From contig JADFDI010000010.1 of the NCBI GenBank assembly GCA_018262985.1, forward strand, positions 9,274 through 73,273: a stretch of 64,000 nucleotides of DNA. Direction: 5' to 3'. Shown piece by piece: positions 9,290 to 48,732 of this stretch. This stretch comes from Spirochaetota bacterium. Its GTDB lineage: Bacteria; Spirochaetota; Spirochaetia; Treponematales; UBA12059. The position numbers and the translations under genes were made by a program. Under the pieces are notes generated by a model. It did no database searches and was not told where the DNA came from. It saw nothing but the letters and a program-made list of their open reading frames with translations. Position 1 is the first letter of the stretch, and the number at the start of each line of letters is the position of its first letter.

Positions 9290-10738
9290 TCATGCACCTC
9301 CGACCTTGACGCGCCGCTTCCAGCGCAGGTTCCAGGCCGCCTCCGGAGCGCCATCGGACGGGGCGGCAAAACCGAGCGAAGCGGAAAGCGCGCCGCCCGC
9401 GAGGGGCAGTGTCGCGCCGAGGGACGCCTCCAGTCCGGGAGGGGCGACGAGCGCCAGCGGCAGCTCGAGCGCGAAGGCGGCGGACAAGGCCAGGCCGGCG
9501 GTCTTGAAGGCGACCGAGGGGACGAGGTGCAGCGAGAGCGAATCGGCGTCGGCGAGGGCCGACGCCAGGTCCGCGAGATCGGCCAGTATCCGGCACGAGA
9601 AGTCCGCCTCCAGCGCGCCCCCGTCGAAGCCGGCTTCAAACTCCGCGCCGAGGCGGGGCGGATCGCGCGCGGGACCTTCGCGCGTGAAGCCCAGGGCGAT
9701 CCGCCACGGGCCAGGACTCGCCTCGACGTCGAGGGCGAGATCGAGCTCGCTGCCTTCACCCTCTTCGCTCGACGAGACGAGCCGCGCGTCGAGGACGACG
9801 AAATCGGAAGGCTCGAACGAAAGGTCGGCGCGGAGCAGCAGGGCCGCGCCCTGCCGTCCCGTCGGAGTAGACCAGGCCCCGGAGCGCGCGGCGGCGGCGG
9901 CTTCGAGACCGAAAGGCCCCGAGCGGAGCCCCGCCTCCAAGCGGACGGCCGCGCCCTCCGGCCCGCGGAGCGCGTCGGTGAAGCCCGCCGCGAGGCTGGC
10001 GCGGGAGGAAGCGCGAGCGAGCGACGCGTGGAAGGCCAGCGCGAGCGCGGGACCCGCGGCCGCCACCGCCTCCGCGTCGACCCAGCTCCGCGTCGAGGGC
10101 CCGGTTTCGACGAAGCGCCAGGCGAGGAGGCCGTACGAGGCGGCGCGGGCGGGCGAAGCGTTCAGCCAGACCGTCAGGACCGGAGCCTCTCCCGCCGGCA
10201 CCCAGGCCCCGGCGCCGAACCCGTCGCCGCCCAAGGCGACTCCGAGCCTCGACGACTCGAGCGAAGCGTCGAGGGCGAAGGGACTTCCATCGGGCGCCGT
10301 CAGCCTGAAGCCCTCTCCCGCCGGGTCGAGGAGGAAGCGAGCGAGTCCGGACAACTCGAGCGGACCGACGAGCGCGTAGGTCGAGGAGAGGCCGGCGCGA
10401 ACCTCGAAGACCCGGCCCTCCGCGCCGGAGGCGGAGAGGACGAAGCGCGATGCTCCGTCCGTCAGCGCGAGGCGCGTTTCCGCCTCGGGAAGGAGGAGGC
10501 CGCTCCCGGCCGACGCGAGGGGCAGCTCCCCCGACAAGGCTTCGGAACAATCGATGACGTAGGAGCGGAGTCGCGCGTCCGCCGGGGCCGTGGCCTGGGC
10601 GGACGCGACGAACGGCCCGACGGCGGGGAGCGAGAGGAAGCAGGCGAGCGCCGCGCCGCGTAGCCGGCGGAAGGCCCGCGGTCGCGGCGGAAGCGGGCTC
10701 GTCGGAATCGGGCCAAGGGAGAACGATCCGTATGCCAT
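9290..10738 (-). CDS. secreted or outer-membrane hypothetical protein
   Basis: Signal-peptide-like RRLRGAALACFLSLPAVGPFVASAQA. Ala/Gly/Leu/Ser-rich with alternating beta-like patterning. 38 nt upstream of the lipoprotein gene on the same strand. Confidence 0.5.
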   Translation of the reverse strand: MAYGSFSLGPIPTSPLPPRPRAFRRLRGAALACFLSLPAVGPFVASAQATAPADARLRSYVIDCSEALSGELPLASAGSGLLLPEAETRLALTDGASRFVLSASGAEGRVFEVRAGLSSTYALVGPLELSGLARFLLDPAGEGFRLTAPDGSPFALDASLESSRLGVALGGDGFGAGAWVPAGEAPVLTVWLNASPARAASYGLLAWRFVETGPSTRSWVDAEAVAAAGPALALAFHASLARASSRASLAAGFTDALRGPEGAAVRLEAGLRSGPFGLEAAAAARSGAWSTPTGRQGAALLLRADLSFEPSDFVVLDARLVSSSEEGEGSELDLALDVEASPGPWRIALGFTREGPARDPPRLGAEFEAGFDGGALEADFSCRILADLADLASALADADSLSLHLVPSVAFKTAGLALSAAFALELPLALVAPPGLEASLGATLPLAGGALSASLGFAAPSDGAPEAAWNLRWKRRVKVGGA

Positions 10739-10814: not shown

Positions 10815-12188
10815 CTACGCCTGGCCGGAGCCGGAATCCGGGGCCGGCGCGGGACGCTCCGCCCGGGCCGGCAGCGAGCCGGGTCCCCGCGCGCGGTTCC
10901 AGGCGGAGAGCGCGAAGAGCCCGAGCGCCCCGAGCGCCGAGGTGAGCGCGATCGGCCCCCAGACCGCGCGCGCGCCGAAGGCGTCAGCGAGCGGTCCCGC
11001 GACGAGGGGCGATAGCACGCCTCCCATGATGTAGGCCAGCGAGAGCGCGCCGTTCACGCGCCCGCGATGGCTCTCGGGCGCTCGCTCGGCCACGAAGGCG
11101 TTGCCGTTGGTGGCGCCGAGGATCTCGCCGAGGGTCCAGAAGGCGGTGACGCCGAGGAAGGCCGGAACGCCGCTCACCCATCCGTAGGCGCCGAAGCCGA
11201 GCGCGTAGAACACGGAGCCGAGCGCCACCGCCGCGAGGCTCGGAAGCCTGCGGGAAGCGAGGGTGACGAGGGCCGTGGCCGCCACCACGGTGAGGCCGTT
11301 GACGCTCATGGCCCAGGTGAAGGCCTGCGCGCCGAGCGCCTCGCCGAAGGTTTCCTTCAGGGTGAGCGGCAGGGCGAAACGGTGCTGGTCGTAGACGAAG
11401 GCGGTGAGCACCGCGAGGAGGCCGTACGCGCTCAAAACCGGGTCGGCGCGGAACACCGCCAGGGTGCTCGCGCGGCCGAGGACGGGCGCCCCTCCGGCGG
11501 AGCCGTCCGCCCGGGTGGAGGGATCCGGTTTCACGGAAGGGAGCGACGACGCCGCGGCGCCGCTCCGCCTCGCCGCCCTACCCGCCGCGAGCTCGGGCAC
11601 GAAGAGCGTCGCGGTGGCGGCCGCGAGGAGGAGGGCCAGGGCGTTGCCAGCGAAAAGGGCGCGAGGGGCGTGGACGTAGAGGAAGCCCGCGAGCGCGGGC
11701 CCTACCGAGAAGCCCACGTTGTTACCCCAGTATAGAAGGGAAAAGGCCTCGCGCCGGCGCTCCGGCGGAGCGTGGTCCGCCACGAGGGCGTTGATGGAAG
11801 GCCAGGAGCCGGAAAGCAAGGCGAGGGCGACCGCCGCGAGGGCCGGGGTCCAGGGTCCGTAGCCGACGACGGCGGACGCGAGGAAGATGGCCGCGGCGAG
11901 GCTCTGGAGGAGGGCGAGGACGCGGCGACGGCCGAACGCGTCGCCGAGCTTGCCGCCCAGGAGCGATCCGACGCCCGAGAGACCCGCGACGAGCGACATG
12001 AACACGCCCGCCGCCGAACCCGACCAGCCGAGCCGGCCGGTCAGGATCATGACGAGGAGCACGTGCACGAAGCTGCCCGCCGACACGACCAGGCGGATGA
12101 GGAAGAGCGCGTAGATTGCGCGCGGCAACGGAGGCTTCCGGACCGGTGTCGCGGCGGGGACTTCGGTAGTGGACGGCATGGACCGCAT
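10815..12188 (-). CDS. MFS transporter
   Basis: About 12 hydrophobic helices, with GDAFGRRRVL (the MFS loop 2-3 motif). Start taken at MRSMPST (ATG 12188; alternative ATG 12179). The ORF extension to 12299 is unlikely. Confidence 0.8.
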   Translation of the reverse strand: MRSMPSTTEVPAATPVRKPPLPRAIYALFLIRLVVSAGSFVHVLLVMILTGRLGWSGSAAGVFMSLVAGLSGVGSLLGGKLGDAFGRRRVLALLQSLAAAIFLASAVVGYGPWTPALAAVALALLSGSWPSINALVADHAPPERRREAFSLLYWGNNVGFSVGPALAGFLYVHAPRALFAGNALALLLAAATATLFVPELAAGRAARRSGAAASSLPSVKPDPSTRADGSAGGAPVLGRASTLAVFRADPVLSAYGLLAVLTAFVYDQHRFALPLTLKETFGEALGAQAFTWAMSVNGLTVVAATALVTLASRRLPSLAAVALGSVFYALGFGAYGWVSGVPAFLGVTAFWTLGEILGATNGNAFVAERAPESHRGRVNGALSLAYIMGGVLSPLVAGPLADAFGARAVWGPIALTSALGALGLFALSAWNRARGPGSLPARAERPAPAPDSGSGQA

Positions 12189-12335
12189 TCTATCCACCCG
12201 AACGGCGGCGCGGACAGGGGTGCCCCGCGGAAATGCGCAGCGAGCTTGAGCGTGCAGGGGGCATAGGGCATCATCCCGCGTGACTGGGCGAAGCCCCATT
12301 TCCCCTTCCCCCGCGCCTCCGTCCCCGTTCCTCCC

Positions 12336-12540
12336 GAGCTCTGTCCCTCTTGAGCTCTGTCCCTCCCCGAGCTCTGTCCCAGAGCTCTATCCCTGAGCTC
12401 TGTCCCTGAGCTCTGTCCCTGAGCTCTGTCCCTGAGCTCTGTCCCTGAGCTCTGTCCCTGAGCTCTGTCCCTCCCGAGCTCTGTCCCTCTTGAGCTCTGT
12501 CCCTCCCGCGGCGGGCTCTGTCCCTCCCGAGCTCTGTCCC
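12336..12540 (-). repeat. array of 14 copies of GAGCTCTGTCCC(T), including 7 consecutive 13-bp tandem units
   Basis: Copies start at 12336, 12352, 12369, 12382(v), 12395, 12408, 12421, 12434, 12447, 12460, 12476, 12492, 12513(v), 12529. An identical 36-nt block occurs at 12331-12366 and 12471-12506. Confidence 0.95.
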
Positions 12541-12566
12541 TCAGCGCGGCCCGCAGCGCCGAGGCC

Positions 12567-12595
12567 TTGACCCGATCCGGAGGGGGCGCTATATT
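12567..12595 (+). promoter_or_regulatory. sigma70-like promoter for the glutaredoxin-like gene
   Basis: TTGACC (12567-12572), 17-nt spacer, TATATT (12590-12595). Followed by an AT-rich leader and RBS GGAGGA before ATG 12632. Confidence 0.55.
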
Positions 12596-12631
12596 ACATA
12601 TAGTTTTCTATATATTGCGGAGGAAAGCGAC

Positions 12632-12859
12632 ATGGCGATTTCCGTCTATACGACCCCCACCTGCACCTACTGCCGGCTCGTCAAGGACTGGCTCAAGCAG
12701 CGCAACGTGCGCTTCGACGAGTACGACGTGGCCCGCGACCCGCGCCGAGCCGACGAGATGGTCCGGAAGAGCGGGCAGATGGGCGTGCCCGTGACCGACA
12801 TCAACGGCCGCATCATCGTCGGCTTCAACCAGGGCGCGCTCGAGGCGGCCCTGCGCTGA
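12632..12859 (+). CDS. glutaredoxin-like protein (NrdH/YruB-type, 75 aa)
   Basis: ISVYTTPTCTYCRLVKDWL has the CxxC active site. GVPVTDINGRIIVGFN is the typical glutaredoxin C-terminal half. Confidence 0.85.
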   Translation: MAISVYTTPTCTYCRLVKDWLKQRNVRFDEYDVARDPRRADEMVRKSGQMGVPVTDINGRIIVGFNQGALEAALR

Positions 12860-14355: not shown

Positions 14356-15168
14356 ATGACCGTGGTCTACAACGCCGTGCCGGAACTGCAGCTGGGACTG
14401 GCGGCCGTCTTCGTCTGCGTCGGCTTCGGCTTCCTGGTCCTCGCTCTCGTGTTCAGGAAGGTCAGGGGACCCGGATTCTGGGCGCTCTCCTTCTTCTCGA
14501 ACTCGGCCGGCTTCGCCTTCTGGTCCGGCCTCGTCCCGATCGACCCCGTCGCGTACCAGGTGGTCGGGGAAGCGTTCCACATCGCGGGATTCTACCTGCT
14601 CGCGGTAGGGGCGCTGCTCTTCGCCGAGGTCAGGATACCCGCGCCCGTCTACGTACCCTTCCTCCTGCTCTGGGGCCTCGCCTGGTTCCTTTCCATACGG
14701 TACTTCGGGGAGCGCCCCTACCTGGCGGGGCTCTCGCTCAAGGCGCTCCGGGCGCTCGTGCTGCTGATCTCCGGAGCCGTCCTGATGGTCGGCAGGAAGG
14801 GCCGGAACCCGGCGGGAACGAACATCGCGGGCGGCAGCCTGATCCTCTGGTCGGCCTACATCCTCGCCTCCGCGTTCGTCAGGATCGACGGCGTGGTCTA
14901 CTACGGGTTCCTCGTGGGCCTGCAGATCCTCGCCGCCTTCGGCATGGTGGCCATGCTGGTCGACGGGATCCGGACGAGCATCGGCAGGATGGAGCGGAAG
15001 GTGGAGCAGCTCGAGGGCATCCTGCCGATCTGCTCCTACTGCAAGAAGATCCGCGACGGAAACGACGAATGGCACGTGATCGAGGAATACATCGAGACCA
15101 GGTCCAAGGCCGAATTCAGCCACGGCATCTGCCCGGAATGCTTCGCCAAGCACCGGCCGGATCGATGA
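14356..15168 (+). CDS. 7-TM membrane protein with C-terminal CxxC...CxxC module
   Basis: About 7 hydrophobic helices, a short coiled segment, then ICSYCKKIRDGNDEWHVIEEYIETRSKAEFSHGICPECF. Confidence 0.7.
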   Translation: MTVVYNAVPELQLGLAAVFVCVGFGFLVLALVFRKVRGPGFWALSFFSNSAGFAFWSGLVPIDPVAYQVVGEAFHIAGFYLLAVGALLFAEVRIPAPVYVPFLLLWGLAWFLSIRYFGERPYLAGLSLKALRALVLLISGAVLMVGRKGRNPAGTNIAGGSLILWSAYILASAFVRIDGVVYYGFLVGLQILAAFGMVAMLVDGIRTSIGRMERKVEQLEGILPICSYCKKIRDGNDEWHVIEEYIETRSKAEFSHGICPECFAKHRPDR

Positions 15169-16225: not shown

Positions 16226-17188
16226 TCACAGGCCGAAGAAGAGCGGCACGAGGACGGGGACGGCGAGCGAGAGCAGGGCGCCCGAGGCGAAGGCGACCGG
16301 CACGCTCGCCGGTCCGAGGCCCTGTTCGATGAGCGGGAGGGTCACGTCCATCGCGGTCGCGCCGCCCGCGCCGATGGCCGCGAGCGGGACGCGCGTGCGC
16401 GCGAGGAAGGGGATCAGGACGAGGGCGAAGGACTCGCGGAGCAGGTTCGCAAGGAAGGCCGCCGAGCCGAGCGCGGGATCGCCCAGGTCGGCGATGAGGA
16501 CGCCCGAGAGGCTGTACCAGCCGAAGCCCGCCTGCAGGGCGAGCGCGCGGCCGAGGCCGAGGTCGAAGGCGGGCGCGAGGACGAAGGCGGCGGCGAGCGA
16601 GCCGAGCGCCGTCGCGAGGGGCACCGCGAGCGTTTCGGGGCGGAGCGCGGCTTCCTTGAACGAGATGCCGGCCTGCGCGAACTGCATGCCGACGAAGAAG
16701 AGCAGGGCGTTGAGGATCCACGCCGTCGCGAGGCCCGTGTCGAGCCCGAGGGGCGGAAGGAGCAGTCCTCCCAGCAACGCGGCGACCACGTAGGCGAGCA
16801 GGACGAGGGGATCGCGGAATCGCTTCAGGAGCGGAACGGCGCCACCCGTGCGCCCGCGGTCAGCGGTCCCCGCGCCGAGCGCCGTCCGTCCGAGGCCGGG
16901 CCGTCCGCTCAAGCGCTCGATGAGAAGCTCGACTGCGCCCACGATTACGATGGTTCCAGTCAAGCCCCCCAGGCTCGAAGCAAGGGCAAGGAGGCCGATG
17001 TCACCGAGTCGAGCCGCCAGGGCCGGGTCGTTGCCGAGCCGGAAGCCCATGACCGCGAGCAGGGCGCGGAGCACGACGCGCACGAGCAGGTCGACCGTGC
17101 GGCGCGACGGAGCCAGGCGGAGGCGCGCGGCGAGAGCGCCGGCCACGAGAAAGGCGACGAGGACGAGGATCTGCAGGAAGCCTTGCAT
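16226..17188 (-). CDS. lysO: LysO-family (DUF340, YbjE-like) lysine exporter
   Basis: GFGWYSLSGVLIADLGDPALGSAAFLANLLRE...GGATAMDVTLPLI closely parallels E. coli YbjE/LysO. Confidence 0.8.
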   Translation of the reverse strand: MQGFLQILVLVAFLVAGALAARLRLAPSRRTVDLLVRVVLRALLAVMGFRLGNDPALAARLGDIGLLALASSLGGLTGTIVIVGAVELLIERLSGRPGLGRTALGAGTADRGRTGGAVPLLKRFRDPLVLLAYVVAALLGGLLLPPLGLDTGLATAWILNALLFFVGMQFAQAGISFKEAALRPETLAVPLATALGSLAAAFVLAPAFDLGLGRALALQAGFGWYSLSGVLIADLGDPALGSAAFLANLLRESFALVLIPFLARTRVPLAAIGAGGATAMDVTLPLIEQGLGPASVPVAFASGALLSLAVPVLVPLFFGL

Positions 17189-17211
17189 GCGGGCAGTCTA
17201 GCAGAAGCGGA

Positions 17212-17389
17212 GGGCTCTGTCCCCGTCGAGACGGGCTCTGTCCCCGGAAGCGAGCGATCGCGCGGGCCGGCCGCCGAACGGGGTTGAGCTCTGTCCCTAA
17301 AGGCATCCCACGGGGCTGAGCTCTCCGATGCATTCGCCGGGGTTGAGCTCTGTCCCTCCGATGCATTCGCCGGGGTTGAGCTCTGTCCC
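17212..17389 (-). repeat. array of GAGCTCTGTCCC copies (3 exact, 2 GGGCTCTGTCCC variants, 1 decayed) with a 33-bp higher-order unit
   Basis: Copies at 17212(v), 17233(v), 17286, 17318 (decayed), 17345, 17378. The 33-nt unit ggggttgagctctgtccctccgatgcattcgcc starts at 17339, and the next unit starts at 17372. Confidence 0.9.
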
Positions 17390-17465
17390 TGATGGCAGTC
17401 CGGGCGCGAAACCCGGCCGCCCTCGCTTGACCCCCCGCGCGACGCGCCGCTAAGCTCGCCGGAAC

Positions 17466-18233
17466 ATGGTGCGGATAGACACGGAACTCCTCTCGAAGCG
17501 GCGCGTGGCCGAAGGGTACTTCGAACTCCGCTTACGCTGGCCATCCGGTGCGGGCGCGCCCGCAGCGGGCCAGTTCCTGACGCTCCGAGCGCGCGGGGGG
17601 GGCGATCCTCTACTAAGGAGACCCTTCGCGTTCGCTTCGCACGACGCGGCGGAGGACGAAGCCACGCTCGTCATCCAGGAGAGGGGAAGCGCCACGCGCG
17701 CGCTCGCGACCCTGGAGCCGGGCGCGAAGCTCGACCTGCTCGGCCCCCTCGGACGCGGTTTCGCCTTCCCGGAACGGGGGACGGAGCCCGTGCTGGTAGC
17801 GGGCGGCATCGGCGTCGGCCCCGTGCTCTTCCTCCGCGCGTCCCTGGACGCCGCGGGCGTCGCGAGCCGCTTCATCCTCGGCGCGCGGACGGCCGCCCTG
17901 GTGCCCGAGTCGCTGTTGCCGCGCGGCGCGGGCGTGGAGGTCCGCACCGACGACGGCAGCCTGGGAACGCGAGGTACGGCGGCCGACGCGGTCGCCGCGC
18001 TTCCCCGCGACGCCCGCGTCGCGCTCTTCGCCTGCGGACCGAAACCCATGATGGCGGCCCTGGACCGGATCGCGGCGGAACGCGGATGGCCCTACCAGGC
18101 GGCGGTCGAGGAATGGATGGCCTGCGGGGTCGGCGCGTGCATGGGCTGCGCGGTGCCGCTCAAAGGCGGCGGATACTCGCGCGCCTGCGCCGACGGCCCG
18201 GTCCTCGACGGGAGGCTCGTGAAATGGGACTGA
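17466..18233 (+). CDS. pyrK: dihydroorotate dehydrogenase electron-transfer subunit
   Basis: RRPFAFAS (FAD-binding RxxS/T-type motif). C-terminal CGVGACMGCAV...C 2Fe-2S cluster motif. Overlaps the pyrD start. Confidence 0.85.
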   Translation: MVRIDTELLSKRRVAEGYFELRLRWPSGAGAPAAGQFLTLRARGGGDPLLRRPFAFASHDAAEDEATLVIQERGSATRALATLEPGAKLDLLGPLGRGFAFPERGTEPVLVAGGIGVGPVLFLRASLDAAGVASRFILGARTAALVPESLLPRGAGVEVRTDDGSLGTRGTAADAVAALPRDARVALFACGPKPMMAALDRIAAERGWPYQAAVEEWMACGVGACMGCAVPLKGGGYSRACADGPVLDGRLVKWD

Positions 18234-19189
18234 ACGACGCGACTCGCGCGCCCGTCGGCGCGGCGCCGGAACCCTTCGCCCCGGACCTCTCCGTCCGGAT
18301 CGGGCCGCTCACGCTGGCGAACCCCGTCGGGGTCGCCTCGGGCACCTTCGGCTACGGCGAGGAATACGCGGCGTTGCTGGACCTCGACGCCCTGGGAGCC
18401 GTCTACACCAAGGCCGTCACGGTCGAGCCGCGCGCGGGCAACCCGGCGCCGCGCCTCGCCGAGACTCCCTGCGGGATGCTCAACTCCATCGGGCTCGCCA
18501 ACCCGGGGCTCGTGGCCTTCATCCGCGACAAGCTGCCCGCCCTTCGCGCGCGGCGCTTCAGGACCGTCGTCAACGTGGCCGGCGCCGCGCTCGACGACTA
18601 CGTCCGCGTGGTCGAGGAAATCGAGGCGGCGGGCGGCGTCGACGCCTACGAGCTCAACGTGAGCTGTCCGAACGTCAAGTCCGGGGGCATGGCTTTCGGC
18701 ACCGACCCCGCCCTGGTGGCGCTCGTCACCGAGGCGGTCCGCCGCGCCACGAAGCGGGCCCTCGTCGTCAAGCTCTCGCCGAACGTGACGGACATCCGCG
18801 AGACGGCGCGCGCGGCGGAAGCCTCGGGCGCCGACGCGGTGTCGGCCATCAACACCCTGGTCGGCATGGCCGTCGACGTGAAGACCCGGCGGCCCCGCCT
18901 GGCCATGAAGACCGGCGGACTCTCGGGACCGGCGCTCAGGCCCGTCGGCGTCGCGGCGGTCTACCGGATTTCCCGCGCGGTGAAGATCCCCGTCATCGGC
19001 CTCGGCGGCATCGCCACGGCAGACGACGCGCTCGAATACCTGCTGGCCGGCGCGGACGCGGTGCAGGTGGGCACCGCCACCTTCGCCGACCCGGGCGCCG
19101 CCCTACGCGTCCTCGAAGGCATCGAAGCGTGGATGCGGCAGAATCGCGTCGCCCGCGTCGCGGACATAAAGGGCTTGTTGATCGAATAG
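18224..19189 (+). CDS. pyrD: dihydroorotate dehydrogenase catalytic subunit (class 1B)
   Basis: ATG at 18224. NPVGVASGTFGYGEEY, ELNVSCPNVK, KLSPNV, GGLSGPA, IGLGGI are all typical PyrD motifs. Confidence 0.9.
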   Translation: MGLNDATRAPVGAAPEPFAPDLSVRIGPLTLANPVGVASGTFGYGEEYAALLDLDALGAVYTKAVTVEPRAGNPAPRLAETPCGMLNSIGLANPGLVAFIRDKLPALRARRFRTVVNVAGAALDDYVRVVEEIEAAGGVDAYELNVSCPNVKSGGMAFGTDPALVALVTEAVRRATKRALVVKLSPNVTDIRETARAAEASGADAVSAINTLVGMAVDVKTRRPRLAMKTGGLSGPALRPVGVAAVYRISRAVKIPVIGLGGIATADDALEYLLAGADAVQVGTATFADPGAALRVLEGIEAWMRQNRVARVADIKGLLIE

Positions 19190-19202
19190 AGCGGTTCAAC
19201 GA

Positions 19203-19235
19203 TCTAACCATACGCTAACAATCCGCTGACGATGG
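19203..19235 (+). promoter_or_regulatory. candidate Pho box (three direct repeats at 11-bp phasing)
   Basis: CTAACcatacg / CTAACaatccg / CTGACgatggc start at 19203, 19214 and 19225, about 120 nt upstream of the pstS GTG. Confidence 0.4.
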
Positions 19236-19355
19236 CCTCACGGGACTCCGCCATGTTTACGCCCGCCGGGGGCGTGAACGCGCCCGGACGGACGCGGGGC
19301 GGACGCGGGAAAGCGGCGCCTCCTCCGAACGCCTTTTCCGACCACGGAGGCCATC

Positions 19356-20330
19356 GTGAAGAAAACGCTCGCCATCACGCTCCTTGCCCTCGCCGCCAGC
19401 TCGGCGCTCGCGCAAGGCAAATTCACTTGGGTCGCGAAGGTATCGGACGACCCCGACAAGCTGCTCCCCGGCGTAGATCCCGCCAGGACGACCGGCGCCA
19501 TCGTCACGGCCGGCTCCTCGACGGTCTACCCGGTCAGCGAGTACATCGCCGAGATCTTCAAGGAGGACGGCTTCACCGGGCAGGTGAGCATCGACTCCAT
19601 CGGCTCGGGCGCCGGCTTCGAGCGCTTCGCCAAGGCCGGCGAGACCGACATCGCCAACGCCTCGGCGCCGATGCCCGCGAGCAGCTACGAGGCCGCCAAG
19701 GCGATCGGCCGCTACCCGATCGAGTTCCGCATCGGCACCGACGCGCTCGCCGTGGTCGTGTCGAAGAAGAACACTTTCGCGAAGGACGTCACCCAGGCCG
19801 AGCTCGCCCTGCTCTTCTCCACCGCGGTCAACTGGTCCGACGTCCGCCCGAGCTGGCCGAAGATGCCCGTCAAGCGCTACAGCCCCGGCACCGACTCGGG
19901 CACCTTCAGCTACTTCGTCGAGCATCTCTTCAAGAAGAAGAAGGAGCCCCTGCTCGGCGCGGCGAACCTGCAGCTCTCCGAGGACGACAACGTCCTGGTG
20001 CGCGGCGTCGAGGCCGACCAGTACGCGATCGGCTACTTCGGCTTCGCCTACTACCTCGAGAACAAGTCGAAGCTGAACGTCCTGAAGATAGACGGAGTCG
20101 AGGCCAACGCCGCGAACGTGGACGCCGGCACCTACCCGCTGGCCCGCCCGCTCTTCCTCTACTCCGACGCCAAGATCATCAACGAGAAGCCCCAGGTGGC
20201 GGCCTTCCTGACCTACTACCTCTCCAACGTCGACGAGGCGCTCGAGGCGGTCGGCTACTTCCCCGCCCCCGAGGCCGACATCAAGGCCGCCAAGCGGAAA
20301 CTGCTCGACGCCATGAAGGGCCGCTACTAA
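19356..20330 (+). CDS. pstS: phosphate ABC transporter substrate-binding protein
   Basis: Signal peptide. TAGSSTVYPV, GSGAGFERF and PGTDSGTFSYF are PstS motifs. RBS GGAGG precedes the GTG. Confidence 0.9.
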   Translation: MKKTLAITLLALAASSALAQGKFTWVAKVSDDPDKLLPGVDPARTTGAIVTAGSSTVYPVSEYIAEIFKEDGFTGQVSIDSIGSGAGFERFAKAGETDIANASAPMPASSYEAAKAIGRYPIEFRIGTDALAVVVSKKNTFAKDVTQAELALLFSTAVNWSDVRPSWPKMPVKRYSPGTDSGTFSYFVEHLFKKKKEPLLGAANLQLSEDDNVLVRGVEADQYAIGYFGFAYYLENKSKLNVLKIDGVEANAANVDAGTYPLARPLFLYSDAKIINEKPQVAAFLTYYLSNVDEALEAVGYFPAPEADIKAAKRKLLDAMKGRY

Positions 20331-20348
20331 CAAGAAGCCCGATACGCG

Positions 20349-20373
20349 TCCGTCCCGCGGACCGCGGGACGGA
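20349..20373 (+). other. intercistronic palindrome between pstS and pstC
   Basis: TCCGTCCCGCGG a CCGCGGGACGGA, with 12-nt perfect arms, 19 nt after the pstS stop. No T-run, so more likely an mRNA stabiliser or attenuator than a terminator. Confidence 0.4.
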
Positions 20374-20442
20374 TCGATCCCGAAGCACCGGGCCGGGCTA
20401 CGAACGCGGAGGGCCCGGCCTTCAGCCAGAAACGGAGCGTAC

Positions 20443-21372
20443 ATGACAGGCAATTTTCCGGAGGAAACGAACGGCCGCCCGAGCCTAGCCAGGCGCGCGC
20501 GCCCCTTCGAGGCGGCCATCCGCGGCCTCCTCTTCGTCTCCGCCGCCATCTCGGTGCTGACGACCATCGGCATCGTGCTCACCCTCGGAACGGAGTCCTG
20601 GGGCTTCTTCCGCGAGGTGGGCGTCCTCGAGTTCCTCGGCTCGCTCGAGTGGCAGCCGGTCATCGGCGACTTCGGCATCTGGCCCCTGTTCAACGCCACG
20701 CTGACGACGAGCTTCTACGCCATGCTGGTGGCCCTGCCCGTCGGCCTCATGGTGGCCATCTACCTGGCCGAGTACGCGAGCGACCGGGTGCGCGAGACCC
20801 TCAAGCCCGTGCTCGAGGTGCTCGCGGGCATCCCGACCGTGGTCTACGGCTACTTCGCGCTCGCGACCGTGACGCCCTTCCTCCGCTCCCTGCTGGGGAC
20901 AGAGCTCGTGGGCGTCTACAACACCTTCTCGGCGGGGCTCGTCATGGGCATCCTGATCCTGCCCTTGGTGAGCTCGATGTGCGAGGACGCGCTTTCCGCC
21001 GTGCCGCGTTCGCTCCGCGAGGGCGCCTACGCCATGGGCGCCACGAAACTCGAAGTGGCCACGCAGGTGGTGGTGCCGGCGGCCTTCTCGGGGCTCGCGG
21101 CGGCCTTCATCCTCGGCCTTTCGCGCGCGGTGGGCGAGACGATGATCGTGGCGCTGGCCGCTGGCGCGGGACCGAAGTTCACCCTCAACCCCTTCGAGCC
21201 CGCCGAGACCATGACCGGCCACATCGTCCGCATCTCGGGCGGCGACATCTCCTACGACTCCATCGACTACCGGAGCCTCTTCGCCATCGCCCTGGTGCTC
21301 TTCCTGGTCACGCTGGCCCTCAACATCCTTTCGCGCCGCATCGTGGCGAAGCACTGGGAGGTCTACGAATGA
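20443..21372 (+). CDS. pstC: phosphate ABC transporter permease
   Basis: 6-TM permease with an EAA-type loop (REGAYAMGATKLEV). Position after pstS. Confidence 0.9.
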   Translation: MTGNFPEETNGRPSLARRARPFEAAIRGLLFVSAAISVLTTIGIVLTLGTESWGFFREVGVLEFLGSLEWQPVIGDFGIWPLFNATLTTSFYAMLVALPVGLMVAIYLAEYASDRVRETLKPVLEVLAGIPTVVYGYFALATVTPFLRSLLGTELVGVYNTFSAGLVMGILILPLVSSMCEDALSAVPRSLREGAYAMGATKLEVATQVVVPAAFSGLAAAFILGLSRAVGETMIVALAAGAGPKFTLNPFEPAETMTGHIVRISGGDISYDSIDYRSLFAIALVLFLVTLALNILSRRIVAKHWEVYE

Positions 21373-22643
21373 ACGCCGGGAAATTCCGCGCCGCCACCGG
21401 CGCGCGCGGCGACGGGAGCTTCCTGCCGAACCTCGGGAAGCGCCAGGCTGCCGGCAGGCGCTGGGCGGCGGCTTTCGCCGCGGCCACCATCGCCGCGGTC
21501 CTCGTGCTCGGCGCCCTCGTCGCGAGCATCGTCAACGACGCCTTCGGCCTCGTGGCCATGGAGTACACGGTCGACCCCGCGACCCTCGCGCCGGGCGGCG
21601 ACATCGAGAAGCTCTCCGACGCGGAGCTCGTCGCGGCGCTGGAGGGCAACCTGAAAAGCCGCCGGCTCCGCGCCCTCGGCAACGAGAAGCCGCTCGCCGA
21701 ACGCGAGCGCGCGGACCTGCTGGCCCTGGTCGAGGACGAGGTGATCAAATGGGAAGTGGTCGAGACTTTCTCGCTCGCGGAATCGCTCCTCGGCCGCGCC
21801 GAGGTGGACGCCTTCGTGGCCGCGGAGCACCCGCAGGCGAAGCTGGTCTTCCGCTCCTGGGTCAACGCGCGCTATCTCTCCGCCTCGCAGTCGGCCACGG
21901 CCATCGACGCGGGCGTTCGCAGCGCCCTCATCGGCACCCTGATGACCATCCTCATCACCGTGGCCACCGCCTTCCCGATCGGCATCGCGGCCGCGATCTG
22001 GCTCGAGGAGTACGCGAAGGACGACAAGTGGAACCGCTTCATCCGGGTGAACATCTACAACCTGGCCGGCGTCCCGTCCATCATCTACGGCATGCTGGGC
22101 CTGGCCATCTTCGTGCGCGCGCTCGAGCCCGTGACGAGCGGGGCGGCCTTCGGCGCCGCCGCGGACCCGACCGGCGCCAACGGCCGGACCATCCTCTCGG
22201 CCGGGCTGACCCTGGCCCTGCTCGTGCTGCCGGTGATCATCATCAACGCGCAGGAAGCGTTCCGGGCCGTGCCGCGCACGCTGCGCGAATCGGGCTACGC
22301 GGTGGGCGCCACCAAGTGGCAGGTGGTGTGGCACCACGTCCTGCCCGCGGCCTTCGACCGCGTGCTCACGGGCACCATCGTCGCGGTGAGCCGCGCCATC
22401 GGCGAGACGGCGCCGCTCGTGGTCGTCGGCGCGTCGACCTTCCTCACCCAGGACCCGACTTCGGTCTTCTCGAAATTCACCACCCTGCCCATCCAGATCT
22501 ACCAGTGGACGGCCCGACCCCAGGAGGACTTCCACAACATCGCGGCGGCCGCGATCCTGGTGCTGCTCGTCCTGATGCTCTCGCTCAACGCCTTCGCCAT
22601 CATCCTGCGGAACCGCCTCCGCGCCAAGAAGAGGTTCGCCTGA
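21369..22643 (+). CDS. pstA: phosphate ABC transporter permease
   Basis: ATG at 21369 overlaps the pstC stop. Long periplasmic loop, then a permease core with [15 protein letters not shown]. Confidence 0.9.
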
Positions 22644-22644
22644 C

Positions 22645-23448
22645 ATGAAGAGAGACAGCGCCACCGATCCCTTCGACCTCGCCGTCGAGACGGGCGAGAC
22701 GCCCTGGGCGCTCGAGACCAGGGGAATGAGCGTCGACTACGGCGCCTTCCGCGCCGTGAAGGACCTCACCATGGGCTTCGAGAAGCGGCGGGTCACGGCC
22801 ATCATCGGCCCTTCCGGCTGCGGCAAGAGCACCGCGCTCCGCGCCTTCAACCGCATGAACGACCTGATACCCGGCTGCCGGACGGAGGGGCAGGTGCTCT
22901 TCCACGGCGCCGACGTCTACGCGCCGGAAGTGGACCCGGTCAAGGTGCGGCGCTGGATCGGCATGGTCTTCCAGAAGCCGAACCCCTTCCCCAAGAGCGT
23001 CCGCGAGAACATCCTCTGGGGAGCCCGCATCAACGGGTACTCCGGCGACGAGGAGGAGCTCGTGGAGGGCTCGCTCCGCCAGGCCGCGCTCTGGGACGAG
23101 GTGAAGGACAAGCTCGACAAGTCCGCCCTCGCGCTTTCAGGCGGCCAGCAGCAGCGGCTGTGCATCGCGCGCGCCGTGGCGGTCAAGCCCGAGATCCTGC
23201 TCATGGACGAGCCGACGAGCGCCCTCGACCCGATCTCGACCTCGCGCATCGAGGACCTGCTCGAGGAGCTCAAGTCCCGCTACACCATCATCATCGTGAC
23301 GCACAACATGCAGCAGGCGGGCCGGGTCTCCGACCGCACGGCCTTCATGCTGCTCGGCGACCTCGTGGAGTACGCACCCACCAAGGAGCTCTTCCTGAAT
23401 CCGAAGGACGGGCGCACCGAGAACTACATATCCGGCCGCTTCGGCTGA
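22645..23448 (+). CDS. pstB: phosphate ABC transporter ATP-binding protein
   Basis: Walker [10 protein letters not shown], signature LSGGQQQRL, Walker [14 protein letters not shown]-loop VTHNMQQA. Confidence 0.95.
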
Positions 23449-23469
23449 GACCCCGGGGAGGGACAGAGC

Positions 23470-24129
23470 ATGCATTCGCGCATCCAGTTCATGGAGGAGC
23501 TTTCGCGCCTCCACCACGACATCCTGTCCATGGGGACCCGCGTCGGGGAAAACCTCGCCAAGGCGCTCGAGGCGCTCCGCTCCGGCGACGCCGAGCTCGC
23601 GGACGAAGCCCGGGCGGGCGACGGCGCCGTCGACGCCATGCAGGTGACCATCGAGGACCGCGCCGCCGTCCTCATCGCCACCCAGCAGCCGGTGGCCGGC
23701 GACCTCCGCGAGCTCGTGACGGTCTTCAAGCTGACCGAGCACCTGGAACGGATCGGCGACTACGCCTCGCACCTGGCGAAGGCGGCCAAACGGCTCGCGA
23801 AGGAGCCCTACCCGCGCTCGATCGAGCCGCTCGAGAGCATGGCCGAGCTCGAGATCTCGATGGTCCGCGACGCGGTCGCGGCCTTCCTGAACCGCGACGC
23901 GGAGCTCGCGCGCGCCTGCGCCGCGCGGGACGACGAGGTCGACGCGAGCCACAAGGCCTTCCTCGAGGAGGCGCTCGACTTCGTCCGCGAGAACCCGGAC
24001 AAAGCGCAGCAGGGCATGCGCCTCATCCGCGCCTCCGCCTGGCTCGAGCGCCTCGGCGACCACGTCACCAACATCTGCGAGGCGGTGGTGTTCATGGTCG
24101 AGGGGCGCCACGTGGAGCTGAACGAGTAG
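23470..24129 (+). CDS. phoU: phosphate signalling complex protein PhoU
   Basis: Two PhoU repeats (ERIGDYASHLAK and ERLGDHVTNICE). Located directly after pstB. Confidence 0.9.
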   Translation: MHSRIQFMEELSRLHHDILSMGTRVGENLAKALEALRSGDAELADEARAGDGAVDAMQVTIEDRAAVLIATQQPVAGDLRELVTVFKLTEHLERIGDYASHLAKAAKRLAKEPYPRSIEPLESMAELEISMVRDAVAAFLNRDAELARACAARDDEVDASHKAFLEEALDFVRENPDKAQQGMRLIRASAWLERLGDHVTNICEAVVFMVEGRHVELNE

Positions 24130-24155
24130 GAAAGCGGCGGCGGGAACCGGCGGCG

Positions 24156-24230
24156 GGGACAGAGCTCGCCGCGCGAGGGACAGAGCTCGTTGCGCGAGGG
24201 ACAGAGCTCGTTGCGTGAGGGACAGAGCTT
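24156..24230 (+). repeat. four GGGACAGAGCT(C/T) copies at exact 21-bp phasing
   Basis: Copies start at 24156, 24177, 24198 and 24219(v). Unit is gcgcGAGGGACAGAGCTCgtt. Lies between the phoU stop (24129) and the regulator start (24280). Confidence 0.95.
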
Positions 24231-24279
24231 GCCGCGGAAGTCCTCCCGTCGCATAGTGGTACAAGCGGAGGAACGCGCC

Positions 24280-24972
24280 ATGGGCAAGGCGACGATACTC
24301 GCCATCGAGGACGACCCGGACATCCGCGAGCTGCTCGCGTACGCCTTCGGCAAGGAAGGCTGGACCCTCGTCGAGGCGGAGAGCGCGGAAGAAGGACTCG
24401 TGGCCGCCCGGCGCTCCATGCCCGACCTGATCGTGCTCGACGTGATGCTGCCGGGCATGGACGGCCTCGAGGCCTTGCGCCGCTTGAAGGCGGACCCCGT
24501 CCTGGCGCGCGTGCCGGTGATCCTGGCCACCGCGCGCGGCGAGGAATCCGACGTCGTCTCGGGCCTCGAGCTGGGCGCGGACGACTACGTGCCGAAGCCC
24601 TTCAGCCCCAAGGTGCTGGTGGCGCGCATCAGGACGGCGCTCCGCCGCGCCGAGCCCCGAGACCCGGCGCGGGGCTCCGCGCTCCGCGTCCACGGCCTTT
24701 CCATCGACGCGGAGCGCCACGAGGCGCTCGCGGACGGCATCCCGCTCGAGCTTTCCGCGACGGAGTTCTCCTTGCTCGAGCTCCTCTGCCGCAGCCCGGG
24801 CCGCGTCTACTCGCGGCAACGCATCATCGACGCGATAAAAGGGCCCGATTATCCGGTGACGGACCGCTCGGTGGACGTGCAGGTCCTGTCGCTCAGGCGC
24901 AAGCTCGGGGAGAGGGGCGTCCTGGTGGAGACGGTGCGCGGCGTCGGCTACCGAATGAGGGCGGAGGCGTGA
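24280..24972 (+). CDS. phoB: OmpR/PhoB-family response regulator
   Basis: Receiver domain (ILAIEDDPD, LIVLDVMLPGMDG, KPF) plus winged-helix domain (LSATEFSLLELL, VRGVGYR). The PhoB assignment rests on context next to pst-phoU. Confidence 0.75.
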   Translation: MGKATILAIEDDPDIRELLAYAFGKEGWTLVEAESAEEGLVAARRSMPDLIVLDVMLPGMDGLEALRRLKADPVLARVPVILATARGEESDVVSGLELGADDYVPKPFSPKVLVARIRTALRRAEPRDPARGSALRVHGLSIDAERHEALADGIPLELSATEFSLLELLCRSPGRVYSRQRIIDAIKGPDYPVTDRSVDVQVLSLRRKLGERGVLVETVRGVGYRMRAEA

Positions 24973-26813
24973 GGCGGCGCTCGCTCGCGGGCCGGGTGGG
25001 CGCGGCCTTGGCCCTGGCCGCGCTCGCGGGCGTGGCGGCCTTCGGCGCCCTCTCGTTCGCGGTGGCGCGCTCGGTGTACGCGGACGCGAACCGCTTCGCG
25101 CTGGCCGAATCGGCACGCGCGCTCGCCAACCTGGCGGCGGAGGTTTTCGCCGAGCCGGGCCAAGCCGGGACCTGGGCGGCCCGCGCGGCGTCGGGTTCCG
25201 GCTTCCGCTTGACCCTGGTCGCGGCCGGCGGGGCCGTCATCGCGGAGACGCGGGCGGACGCCGCCGCGATGGAGAACCACGCGGACCGCCCGGAAGTGGC
25301 GCAGGCCCTGGCGGGCGCGCCCGGCTGGGCGACGCGGCGCTCCGCCACGACCGGAGTCGAAACGCTCTACGCGGCCGCGCCCGTCCTGCGGGGCGGAGAG
25401 CCGGTCGGGGCGCTACGGCTATCGTTCGCGGCGCCCGAGCTCGCGGCGCGGCTCGCGCCCTTCGCGCTGGCCTTCCTGGCGGCCGCGGCGGTCTCCGGGG
25501 CCGCCTGGGCGTTCGCCGCGCGCGCCGTGGGCAAGGCCCTCGTCGCGCCGGTGGCCGAACTGGCGGCCGCGGCCGGCGACTGGGCCGCGGGGCGGCTCAC
25601 GCGGCGCGCCGGCCGCGCCGGGATTCCCGAGCTCGACGCCCTCGCGGGAGTCCTCGACGACATGGCCGCCGAGCTCGACGCGCGCATGCGAGAGTCGGAG
25701 TCCCGCGGGCGCGAGCTCCTGTCCATACTGGACGGCATGGGCGAGGCGGTGGTCGCCGTCGACGCCGCGCTCCGGGTCCGCAGGCTCAACCCCGCCGCCC
25801 GGAAGCTCCTCCTTCCCGGGTTCGGATCGGACAGCGCCGGACGGAGCCTGCTCGAGGCGCTCGGCAGCACCGCGCTCGCCGAGCTGGCCGCGGCCTGCGT
25901 CAAGAGCGCGGAACCGCTCGAGGAGGAGTTCCAGCTTTATCGGGACGAGCGGCGCCATTTCCTCGTGTACGCGGCCCCGCTCGGAGCCCCGGGCGCTCCG
26001 GTGGAGGGCGCGGTGCTCGTCCTCAACGACATCACGCGGCTCCGCGCGCTCGAGCAGGTGCGGACCGATTTCGTCGCCAACGTCAGCCACGAGCTCCGCA
26101 CCCCGATCCAGCTGGTCAAGGGCTTCACCGAAGCCCTCCGCGACGGCGCGGTCGACGATCCGGCCGAAGCGCGCCGCTTCCTCGGCATCGTCTCGCGGCA
26201 CGCGGAGCGGCTCGAGGCCATCATCGACGACCTGCTCTCGCTCGCCCGGCTGGAGCAGGCGGGCGGCGGGAACCTCGGCTACGCGCGGGCGAAGGTCCAC
26301 CTTCCGCTCGCCGAGGCGCTCGCCGCGCTGGAGGCGCGGTCCGTCGGCGCGACCGCGCGCGTCTCGCTCGAATGTCCCGCGGAGCTCGAGGCCGACTGCA
26401 ACCCGGGCCTGCTCGAGCAGGCCGTCCTCAACCTGGTCGACAACGCGCTCAAGTACGCCCCGGATACATCGCCCGTGGACCTGGTCGCGCGCGCCGAAGG
26501 CGGGAAGCTCGTCATCGAGGTGTCCGACCGGGGACCGGGTATCGCGCCGAAGGACGCCGAGCGCATCTTCGAGCGCTTCTACCGCCTCGACAAGGCCCGG
26601 AGCCGCGATTCGGGCGGCACCGGCCTCGGGCTCGCCATAGTCAGGCACATAGCGCTGGCGCACGGCGGCACCGTCTCCGTCAACCCGCGGCAGGGCGGCG
26701 GCTCCGTTTTCCGCCTCGAAATCCCCCTTCGCCTGGAGGAAGGGAAAAACCGCGGAGACGCATGGGCACAAAGGGAGGAAGGGGTCCAGGAAAGCCAAGA
26801 AACCGGAGAATAA
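24969..26813 (+). CDS. phoR: PhoR-like sensor histidine kinase
   Basis: Start overlaps the regulator stop. Two TM helices, HAMP/PAS-like region, H-box SHELRTP, N box NLVDNALKY, G boxes DRGPGI and GGTGLGLAIV. Confidence 0.8.
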   Translation: MRRRSLAGRVGAALALAALAGVAAFGALSFAVARSVYADANRFALAESARALANLAAEVFAEPGQAGTWAARAASGSGFRLTLVAAGGAVIAETRADAAAMENHADRPEVAQALAGAPGWATRRSATTGVETLYAAAPVLRGGEPVGALRLSFAAPELAARLAPFALAFLAAAAVSGAAWAFAARAVGKALVAPVAELAAAAGDWAAGRLTRRAGRAGIPELDALAGVLDDMAAELDARMRESESRGRELLSILDGMGEAVVAVDAALRVRRLNPAARKLLLPGFGSDSAGRSLLEALGSTALAELAAACVKSAEPLEEEFQLYRDERRHFLVYAAPLGAPGAPVEGAVLVLNDITRLRALEQVRTDFVANVSHELRTPIQLVKGFTEALRDGAVDDPAEARRFLGIVSRHAERLEAIIDDLLSLARLEQAGGGNLGYARAKVHLPLAEALAALEARSVGATARVSLECPAELEADCNPGLLEQAVLNLVDNALKYAPDTSPVDLVARAEGGKLVIEVSDRGPGIAPKDAERIFERFYRLDKARSRDSGGTGLGLAIVRHIALAHGGTVSVNPRQGGGSVFRLEIPLRLEEGKNRGDAWAQREEGVQESQETGE

Positions 26814-36888: not shown

Positions 36889-37052
36889 GGGCTCTGTCCC
36901 CGCCATCTAGCTCCGAGCTCTGTCCCTACCATCGAGCTCCGAGCTCTGTCTCCGCTGACGGCCTCCATCTACCACGAGCGAGCTCTGTCCCCAGGGGCGA
37001 GCTCGGCTCCCGGCGAACCCAGTCACCGCCACCGAGCTCCGAGCTCTGTCCC
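36889..37052 (-). repeat. array of GAGCTCTGTCCC copies (3 exact, 2 variants)
   Basis: Copies at 36889(v), 36915, 36941(v), 36980, 37041. The extended unit (a/t)(c/g)cgagctccGAGCTCTGTC recurs. Confidence 0.9.
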
Positions 37053-47020: not shown

Positions 47021-48253
47021 CTACTTCAGCACGCCCAGTTCCCTGCCGGCCTCGGCGAAGGCCTGCACGGCGGCGTCGATCTGCTCCGTCGTATGCGCGG
47101 CGCTGATCTGCACGCGGATGCGTGCCTTGCCGCGCGGCACCACGGGGAAGCTGAAGCCGATGACGTAGACGCCCTTCTCGAGGAGGCGGTCCGCCAGCGC
47201 GTGCGCGAGCTTCTCGTCGTAGAGCATGACCGGCACGATGGGGTGGACGCCCGGGCGGATGTCGAAGCCCGCGGCCGTCATCCTCTCGCGGAAGCGCTTC
47301 GTGTTCGCCTCGAGCCTGTCGCGGAGCTCGGTGCTCGCGGTGAGGAGCTCGAGCGCGGCGAGCGTGCCGCCTACGATGGAGGGCGCCAGGGTGTTCGAGA
47401 ATAGGTAGGGCCGCGCCTTCTGCCTGAGGTACTCGACGATCTCCTTCCGCGCCGCCACGCAGCCACCCGAGGCGCCGCCCAGCGCCTTCCCGAAGGTCGT
47501 CGTGATGATGTCGATCCGGCCCGCCACGCCGCGATATTCCCAGGTGCCGCGGCCCTTCGTCCCGGTGAAGCCCGTAGCGTGGCTGTCGTCCACCATGACG
47601 AGGGCGTCGTACTTCTCCGCCAGGTCGCAGATCGCCTTGAGGTCGGCGATGTCGCCGTCCATCGAGAAGACGCCGTCGGTGGCGATCATGCGGAACTTAG
47701 CGCCCTTCGCCTCCTTGAGGCAGCGCTCGAGACCCTTGGCGGTCTTGCCCGTGTCGGGGTCGGTCTCCTCCACGTCGCGGAGGTCGCCGTGCTTCCAGAT
47801 CCAGCGCTTCGCCTTGCACAGGCGCACCCCGTCGATGATGGACGCATGGTTCAGGCTGTCGGTGATGATGGCCGAATCCTCGTCGAGGAGCGGCTCGAAG
47901 ACGCCGCCGTTCGCGTCGAAGCAGGACGAGAAGAGGATGCAGTCTTCGGTCCCGAGGAAATCGGCGACCGCCTTCTCGAGCTTCTTGTGCAGGTCCTGCG
48001 TGCCGCAGATGAAGCGAACGCTCGAAAGCCCGTAGCCGCGCCCGTCGAGCGCCGCGCGGGCGCCCGCGACCACCGCCGGATGGTTGGAAAGGCCGAGGTA
48101 GTTGTTGGCGCAGAAGTTCACCACTTCCTTGCCGTCGGAGGTGCGGATCAGCGCGCCCTGCGGCGTCGCGATCACGCGCTCGTTCTTGTAGGTCCCGTCG
48201 GCCCGGATGGCCGCGAGCTTCTTCGTCAAATCGTCTTTCAGCGCGCCGTACAC
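47021..48253 (-). CDS. kbl: glycine C-acetyltransferase (2-amino-3-ketobutyrate CoA ligase)
   Basis: GTG start. Colinear with E. coli Kbl throughout ([64 protein letters not shown]). Confidence 0.9.
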
Positions 48254-48537: not shown

Positions 48538-48732
48538 GGGACAGAGCTCACAGGGCAACAAGCGAGTCCCCCCCATAGGGACAGAGCTCAGAGATGGCAA
48601 CAACGGAATCAAAGGGACAGAGCTTCCGGCAACAACGAGAGCAGGGACAGAGCTTCCGGCAACAACGAGAGCAGGGACAGAGCTCTCATGAAGGAACGAC
48701 TCGGTTCCAGGGACGTTTTGGGGACAGAGCTT
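48538..48732 (+). repeat. array of six GGGACAGAGCT(C/T) copies immediately upstream of the RAYT-like gene
   Basis: Copies at 48538, 48578, 48614(v), 48644(v), 48674, 48721(v). The 30-nt unit ggcaacaacgagagcagggacagagcttcc occurs twice. catagggacagagctca occurs twice. Confidence 0.95.

Follow-up and report, generated by a model that had tools for sequence, protein, structure and literature searches.

A strain-variable direct-repeat array in a divergent spirochaete promoter region and its likely kinship with a RAYT-linked repeat family

Introduction

Does an array of short direct repeats between two divergently transcribed genes serve those genes as a switch, or is it a local instance of something more general? 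The question is raised by a 64-kb stretch of DNA (64,000 nucleotides, hereafter the window) from a Spirochaetota bacterium (assembly GCA_018262985.1, contig JADFDI010000010.1), in which direct copies of the 12-nt word GAGCTCTGTCCC lie between the genes for an MFS transporter and a YruB-family glutaredoxin-like protein (grx). Promoter tandem repeats are known from phase variation, as in the TA repeats between the hifA and hifB promoters of Haemophilus influenzae and the TAAA repeats upstream of nadA in Neisseria, and a preliminary description of the window had tentatively read the array as a classic contingency architecture. We find that the array differs between near-identical strains and that its word is dispersed over the whole window, and we favour, with some reservation, the reading that the array is a local and recent cluster of a lineage-wide spirochaete repeat, the hairpin-less 12–13-nt word RRGCTCTGTCCCY, and that this word is the flank motif cognate to a RAYT/TIRYT-type HUH nuclease (RAYT, REP-associated tyrosine transposase; REP, repetitive extragenic palindrome).

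Results

Architecture of the array

The array occupies 12331–12540 on the plus strand, and reading of the sequence together with a pattern search placed 14 copies of GAGCTCTGTCCC on that strand between 12336 and 12540, the number given in the preliminary description. Eleven of these are exact and three carry one mismatch, among them the copies at 12382 (GAGCTCTATCCC, G>A) and 12513 (GGGCTCTGTCCC), and the spacers between copies are A, T, TCCC, TCTT, TCCCC and TCCCGCGGCG. The part from 12369 to 12472 (plus strand) has a period of exactly 13 bp, with copies starting at 12369, 12382, 12395, 12408, 12421, 12434, 12447 and 12460. Seven perfect head-to-tail units had been described here; the spacing holds, but the starts number eight, and perfection extends to the six GAGCTCTGTCCCT units at 12395–12472 (a count taken from the window's assembly alone), which follow the G>A unit at 12382 and one A-spaced copy. 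Tandem Repeats Finder (TRF) reports a period of 13 for the array, with 10.4 copies, 88% matches and a score of 207.

Bracketing this run is a duplicated 36-nt block (12331–12366 and 12471–12506, plus strand), the left copy of which consists of two motif copies with a TCTT spacer; direct comparison upheld the earlier statement that the blocks are identical, and the duplication reaches about 40 nt at 98% identity. Further left lies a pyrimidine-rich border (12301–12330, plus strand) with a decayed copy, CTCCGTCCC, at 12317–12325. The GAGCTC palindrome allows adjacent direct copies to pair into 6-bp hairpins (folding z = −5.8 and −4.4). No Rfam family matched in 12100–12700. A coding repeat was rejected, the periods not being multiples of 3 and no open reading frame (ORF) having support, as was a CRISPR-like array, given units of 12 nt and spacers of just 1–5 nt.

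Variation between near-identical strains

The 75-aa glutaredoxin recurs unchanged on eight other public contigs. In the window, the gap between the start codons of the two genes measures 452 bp and holds 14 copies. Contig L001, with flanks 99.5–99.9% identical, has a gap of 445 bp and 13 copies in a rearranged order, having three T-spaced units fewer and one TCCC-spaced and one TCTT-spaced unit extra, and L005 (flanks 99.2–99.6%) has a gap of 275 bp with two copies. The comparison of unit number across strains that had been proposed as a check thus returned 14, 13 and 2 copies at 99.2–99.9% flank identity. Two further contigs start inside the array, L004 (flanks 99.5–100%) with the L001 arrangement and L003 (about 98%) with a further haplotype. 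The alleles differ by whole word-plus-spacer units that are gained, lost or rearranged, with the word itself exact.

More distant relatives extend the series. L007, 99% identical in grx and 81% upstream, also starts inside its array and carries 7 or more copies, most of them spaced at 19 bp, with 16 bp between the last and the −35 element. L002 and L006 (flanks 80–87%) have a gap of 143 bp with no copies, both promoters and an AT-rich palindrome being kept; the left border at 12301–12330 is part of about 295 bp missing from L002, a sister species that encodes the identical Grx protein beside zero motif copies. As a separate observation from the comparison of L007 1–204 with window 12541–12631, the step from 99% identity in the grx coding region to 81% upstream suggests a recombination or rapid-turnover boundary at the promoter.

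In public sequencing runs, the right-hand part of the array occurs as two haplotypes, one with CCC added at 12459 and GAGCTCTGTCCCTCTT added at 12475 (runs X1 and X7) and one with the window's form (runs X2, X3 and X5); Logan k=31 contigs of the eight runs used break inside the array or at its edges. Taken together, these sequence comparisons indicate that the array is structurally unstable and hypermutable between near-identical strains.

Dispersal of the word over the window

The preliminary description had treated the motif as a feature of the divergent region, where it is indeed present, but its dispersal over the whole window had been missed. With up to one mismatch allowed, GAGCTCTGTCCC has 50 matches in the window against 0.90 expected, a number reached in 0 of 100 shuffles. 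This corresponds to about one copy per 1.3 kb over both strands, with no strand skew and with an orientation that alternates cluster by cluster, on which ground a strand-skewed chromosome-architecture word of the Chi/KOPS type was rejected. The matches comprise 37 exact and 13 one-mismatch copies, and those with two and three mismatches are at chance (11 against 10.1 and 85 against 94), so that the window's mismatch spectrum has no tail of decaying copies. The conserved part of the repeat is RRGCTCTGTCCCY, which has no inverted partner, no GTAG or CGTC tag and no hairpin of its own; its flanks are not conserved. A mobile 13-nt unit with a fixed target was rejected, since the bases before single copies vary.

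Sister arrays lie in the divergent lysO/pyrK-like gap (17212–17389, plus strand, period 33), in the gap between phoU and a response regulator gene (24156–24230, minus strand, period 21) and in another divergent gap (36889–37052, plus strand, period 26 in part). A six-copy array (48538–48732, minus strand, period 30 in part) lies upstream of the RAYT-type gene described below, and several single copies of the word are inside genes. In 390 kb made up of the window and related loci of high GC content, with crude GC3-based gene calls, divergent gaps held 3.1 core copies per kb against 0.7–0.8 in tandem and convergent gaps, and were occupied in 14 of 41 cases against 13 of 140 for the others (Fisher p = 0.0003).

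Two side observations concern other repeats or copies in the window. A core copy, GGGACAGAG, is found at 23460–23468 (plus strand) in the 21-bp gap from the gene end at 23448 to the phoU start, and the related contig L101 has a core copy at the equivalent site (3137). A minus-strand ORF of 1168 aa contains, at 58330–58773, a long 18-bp/90-bp tandem repeat of about 24 units (TRF score 653) that has no relation to the 12-mer. A literature search for the word yielded nothing but unrelated primer matches and papers in which the word does not occur, and a search on uptake-type or dispersed words in spirochaetes found no paper.

Instability of the other arrays

Arrays of the word vary at other sites as well. 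Within 16500–25000 (8.5 kb), five of the six contig-supported indels fall in or at the edge of two arrays: run contigs break at the array at 17212–17389, one showing an indel, and the sole credible duplication joint of this interval, in run X3, doubles the 82-bp array at 24155–24236. The phoU–response regulator gap holds a 21-bp array in the window and a 33-bp array of the same word in the 88%-identical relative L101 (3823–3948); in L099 this gap measures 9 bp (9630–9640), and no copies occur in 12.9 kb. Dense direct arrays of the 12-mer, of up to 27 copies, were found on 29 metagenome contigs with a GC content of 39–68%, at periods of 15–20 bp and none at 13 bp, and the word's core is kept across genomes of 39–71% GC. 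Because the periods differ while the word is exact, the spacers turn over and the word stays; and because variable arrays occur at other intergenic sites, instability is a property of the family. In two contigs of 39–42% GC, L074 (675–956) and L080 (4–231), 13–16 copies stand at an exact 18-bp period, and these could be an in-frame hexapeptide repeat.

A RAYT-type gene and its tie to the word

The window contains a single intact RAYT-type HUH/Y1 gene (48794–49342, plus strand, 182 aa), with a start codon 61 bp beyond the end of the last copy of the six-copy array. Its product matches Pfam Y1_Tnp (E = 2.7e-15) and NCBIfam NF047646, 'REP-associated tyrosine transposase' (81.9 bits, cut-off 80), and keeps the HUH residues H59/H61 and Tyr119 (YLDDNP). 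A phmmer search of the protein alone against the PDB gave no match; a family profile built from it and 13 relatives did match E. coli TnpA-REP (4ER8) at E = 1.2e-9, and in this match the HUH and YxxxNP motifs line up.

A scan of species genomes found 61 loci with RAYT homologues, all but one from spirochaete metagenome-assembled genomes. At most of the closer loci GCTCTGTCCC is the top 10-mer of the surrounding 10–20 kb, even at 48% GC, and distant RAYT lineages carry variants of the word (GCTCCGTCCC, GAGGTCTGTCCCC, GAGGTCTGACCCC and others). At 10 of 11 close RAYT loci, which differ in their neighbouring genes, GGGACAGAGC or a one-mismatch variant lies about 40–70 bp upstream on the gene's strand; in L009 only degenerate copies lie upstream. 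One RAYT paralogue of Spirochaetia bacterium PG1894_164 (L043) has inverted motif copies on both sides. This genome (L035–L065) has about 30 RAYT paralogues with its own dialect, GAGGTCTGTCCCC or GAGGTCTGACCCC, at least one of them (L036) with an in-frame stop. The terminal inverted repeats that flank TIRYT genes share the motif GGGGWSAS (PMC3733652), and this is fitted by the reverse complement GGGGACAG (variant GGGGTCAG), the reading on the reverse strand of about half of the copies, namely those followed by C.

Copies inside genes

In pstC, the copy at 20896–20907 (minus strand) reads GGG ACA GAG CTC, encoding GTEL. The same codons are found in L101, and a motif-free relative has GGC ACG GAG CTC, so that the copy amounts to two synonymous substitutions with no added length, with the rare codon ACA where the relative uses ACG; homologues are ungapped at GTEL. 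A second copy, encoding SSVP, lies in a PAS-GGDEF gene (45938–45949, minus strand), where most of the aligned homologues are of 709 aa, ungapped and with a variable tetrapeptide at the place of SSVP. With homologues lacking gaps at both sites tested, insertion was rejected as the source of the coding copies. Their origin by substitution and the missing decay tail together indicate that the word is actively maintained or written, beyond classical transposition.

Flanking genes and promoters

The MFS transporter gene (10815–12179, minus strand) could start at either of two in-frame ATGs (12188 and 12179). The start had been placed at the first, where an ATG does exist, but gene callers on a related contig take the second. 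A −10-like TAGAAT (12192–12187, minus strand) stands before ATG 12179 and is kept in the 80–87% identical relative L002, and no Shine-Dalgarno sequence is visible before the ATG (12177–12192, minus strand); because TAGAAT sits only 7 nt before the ATG, the MFS mRNA is probably leaderless. On the other side, grx (12632–12859, plus strand) has a sigma70-type promoter, TTGACC-17-TATATT (12567–12595, plus strand), which confirms the −35 previously placed at 12567, is the sole sigma70-like match in 12100–12700 and was found in every related contig reaching that site. An AT-rich palindrome over its −10 (12589–12617, plus strand), composed of CTATATTACATATAG then TTTTCTATATATTG, is kept in all eight related contigs, array-free ones included, and looks like a repressor operator; presumably it resembles an NrdR box. 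A metagenome scan with this conserved operator-like sequence gave no match, and RNA contigs of relatives cover the grx coding region only.

On the grx side, the array stops 26 bp short of the −35, and on the MFS side 151 bp lie between its left edge and the start codon at 12179. No repeat unit at this locus falls within a −35/−10 spacer or a coding region. Since the array thus stands outside both core promoters, changes in unit number alter no −35/−10 spacing.

Exact-protein look-ups of the MFS transporter, PhoU, a 151-aa protein and a 410-aa protein encoded upstream of the RAYT-type gene (47021–48253) found nothing on record. The gene for a 270-aa membrane protein without a Pfam match (14356–15168) is missing from L002, in which grx is followed by a 377-aa gene, a 264-aa gene and then lysO.

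Discussion

We consider it somewhat more probable than the alternatives taken together that the array is what we proposed at the outset, a local and recent cluster of the RAYT/TIRYT-associated repeat, and we lean to a similar degree towards assigning both its instability and its sequence to a genome-wide, hairpin-less repeat family linked to such genes. Units would be gained and lost through replication slippage or unequal recombination between copies, slippage being aided by the GAGCTC hairpins between adjacent direct copies. The single-strand-specific HUH enzyme may act where divergent transcription unwinds the DNA, and the preference for divergent gaps would plausibly reflect the exposure of single strands both to slippage and to this enzyme. 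As the tightest packing seen, the 13-bp run would be the youngest part of the array, and older events would be recorded in the duplicated 36-nt block and in the decayed copy of the left border. Because it is placed upstream of the two core promoters and the sister species manages without it, the array would be tolerated repeat DNA, with length polymorphism as a by-product and at most an incidental modulation of the promoters.

Several results weigh against this interpretation. Both of the two tested copies in structured coding regions arose by substitution and not by insertion, and there is no tail of decayed copies, the two- and three-mismatch counts being at chance; a simple 'transposed and decaying' element predicts neither. 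Both features suggest that the word is under selection or under a conversion-type drive. The window's RAYT gene is flanked by the word upstream only, with no copy downstream, and the word lacks a hairpin, the structure known to be recognised by RAYTs. That the word changes along with RAYT lineage could in part reflect shared genome ancestry. As regards the alleles, the two-copy form is a single contig from JGI (L005), with no added support in four more runs, and the unit count of the perfect run comes from one assembly.

Among known systems, the TIRtrons with their TIRYT genes (Di Nocera et al. 2013, PMC3733652) come close in several respects: a RAYT-like HUH/Y1 gene is combined with a short flank motif, this motif is also an abundant genomic repeat that occurs single, paired or grouped, and the GGGGWSAS fit and the inverted flanking of at least one PG1894_164 paralogue agree with their pattern. 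Here, by contrast, conservation is limited to 12–13 nt, copies flank the window's gene on one side instead of forming terminal inverted repeats on both, and the word forms long direct head-to-tail arrays, prefers divergent gaps and has gene copies made by substitution. The REP/BIME and REPIN systems (TnpA-REP 4ER8; Pseudomonas REPINs, PMC3116915) likewise have a single-copy domesticated Y1 nuclease gene beside its own repeat, intergenic clustering and hundreds to thousands of copies, as the density of our word would imply. A RAYT gene with HUH motif and catalytic tyrosine, flanked by the repeat, is therefore shared with REP–RAYT systems. The word differs from REPs in having no 20–40-nt imperfect palindrome and no GTAG/CGTC tag, in forming direct clusters and not inverted doublets, and in coding copies without length change. 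REPs are placed mostly between unidirectional and convergent genes (PMC3733652), and the word, enriched in divergent gaps, shows the opposite of this classical extragenic location.

The main open rival, to which we give a minor share of belief, holds that the word is a host-selected DNA signal, either a site for a chromosomal protein or an uptake-type sequence, and that the RAYT gene merely carries a copy. The word would then be kept exact by selection or molecular drive, with arrays serving as high-avidity clusters. In its favour are the density of about one copy per 1.3 kb on both strands without skew, the origin of the pstC and PAS-GGDEF copies by substitution with unchanged length, the dominance of exact copies without an excess at two to three mismatches, a core kept over genomes of 39–71% GC, and the lineage dialects. 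The DNA uptake sequences (DUS) of Neisseria and the uptake signal sequences (USS) of Pasteurellaceae are similar in these respects: they have about 10–12 nt, occur about once per kb in both orientations, exist as lineage dialects with exact copies dominant, and enter genes by substitution (PMC2817400). The word departs from these systems in its tie to a transposase-family gene and in its long direct arrays. What tells against a host signal is the fixed position 40–70 bp upstream of RAYT genes despite differing neighbourhoods, together with the inverted copies around the PG1894_164 paralogue, which tie the word to the HUH gene. Direct arrays of up to 27 copies are, to our knowledge, not a feature of known uptake sequences. 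Moreover, the periods of 13, 16, 19, 21, 26, 30 and 33 bp share no helical phasing, which makes cooperative binding to one face of the helix unlikely.

The contingency reading, according to which changes in 13-bp units shift the spacing and phase of the promoters and thereby reversibly alter expression of the MFS and grx genes, seems to us improbable. It draws on real features: unit number and arrangement differ in near-identical strains, with two haplotypes recurring in independent runs; the six perfect units are prone to hairpins; each 13-bp unit would turn the flanks by about 86 degrees; the array comes to within 26 bp of the grx −35, on the upstream side on which UP elements and activators act; the L007 lineage built a different array at the same position; and arrays of the word prefer divergent promoter gaps. 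Like the hifA/hifB- and nadA-type repeats, it is a perfect short tandem repeat at promoters with a strain-polymorphic unit number. Unlike them, it stands outside the −35/−10 spacer and is made of a genome-wide word found at many unrelated loci. At this locus no repeat lies between −35 and −10 or in a coding region, and both promoters and the palindrome are kept in the array-free relative with its 143-bp gap. Strains with an array have more than 370 bp between the two promoters, a distance at which phase coupling is implausible unless the DNA loops. Arrays of the word that vary just as much stand beside housekeeping operons such as pst/phoU, and an MFS transporter and a YruB-type glutaredoxin are not the surface or restriction genes usual in phase variation. 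The classic contingency architecture of the preliminary description thus did not survive the examination of promoter geometry, the array-free relative and gene content.

A bolder version of the RAYT-linked reading, which we hold to be quite unlikely, is that the RAYT-type HUH enzyme, or a host process dependent on it, writes and multiplies its own 12-nt word at near-matches and at divergent promoters. Near-matches in genes would be converted through short-patch replacement, and whole word-plus-spacer units would be added or removed in the unwound DNA of divergent promoters. If this were true, the arrays would be enzyme-driven spacers with fast length change, providing standing promoter variation at many loci.

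Least probable of all, and very doubtful in our view, is an assembly artefact, in which the perfect run and the differences between assemblies stem from short-read mis-assembly of a truly uniform locus: the Logan contigs of all eight runs do break in the array or at its edges, and the number of perfect units comes from a single assembly, no Nanopore or PacBio run having been found. Against an artefact, five or more independent assemblies or runs contain the array, a standard read is longer than the 91-bp perfect run, and the k-mers required by the allele junctions (CCC at 12459, GAGCTCTGTCCCTCTT at 12475, and in L005 TCTT-motif-TCAGCG) are missing from the other alleles, so that collapse alone does not account for them.

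For the biology of these repeats, the RAYT-linked reading would have the following meaning. REP/RAYT systems are understood as hairpin repeats downstream of genes, and the RAYT-linked word described here differs from this picture: it is hairpin-less, stacks down to a 13-bp period and prefers divergent promoter gaps, and it combines turnover of arrays between strains that are more than 99% identical with a word that stays exact over genomes of 39–71% GC. Single arrays of such words should hence be read with caution and not taken for locus-specific switches. At the site between the MFS and grx genes, alleles with 0, 2, 13 and 14 copies and a version with a 19-bp period form a natural allelic series, which could be used to gauge both the rate at which such arrays change and their effect on neighbouring promoters.

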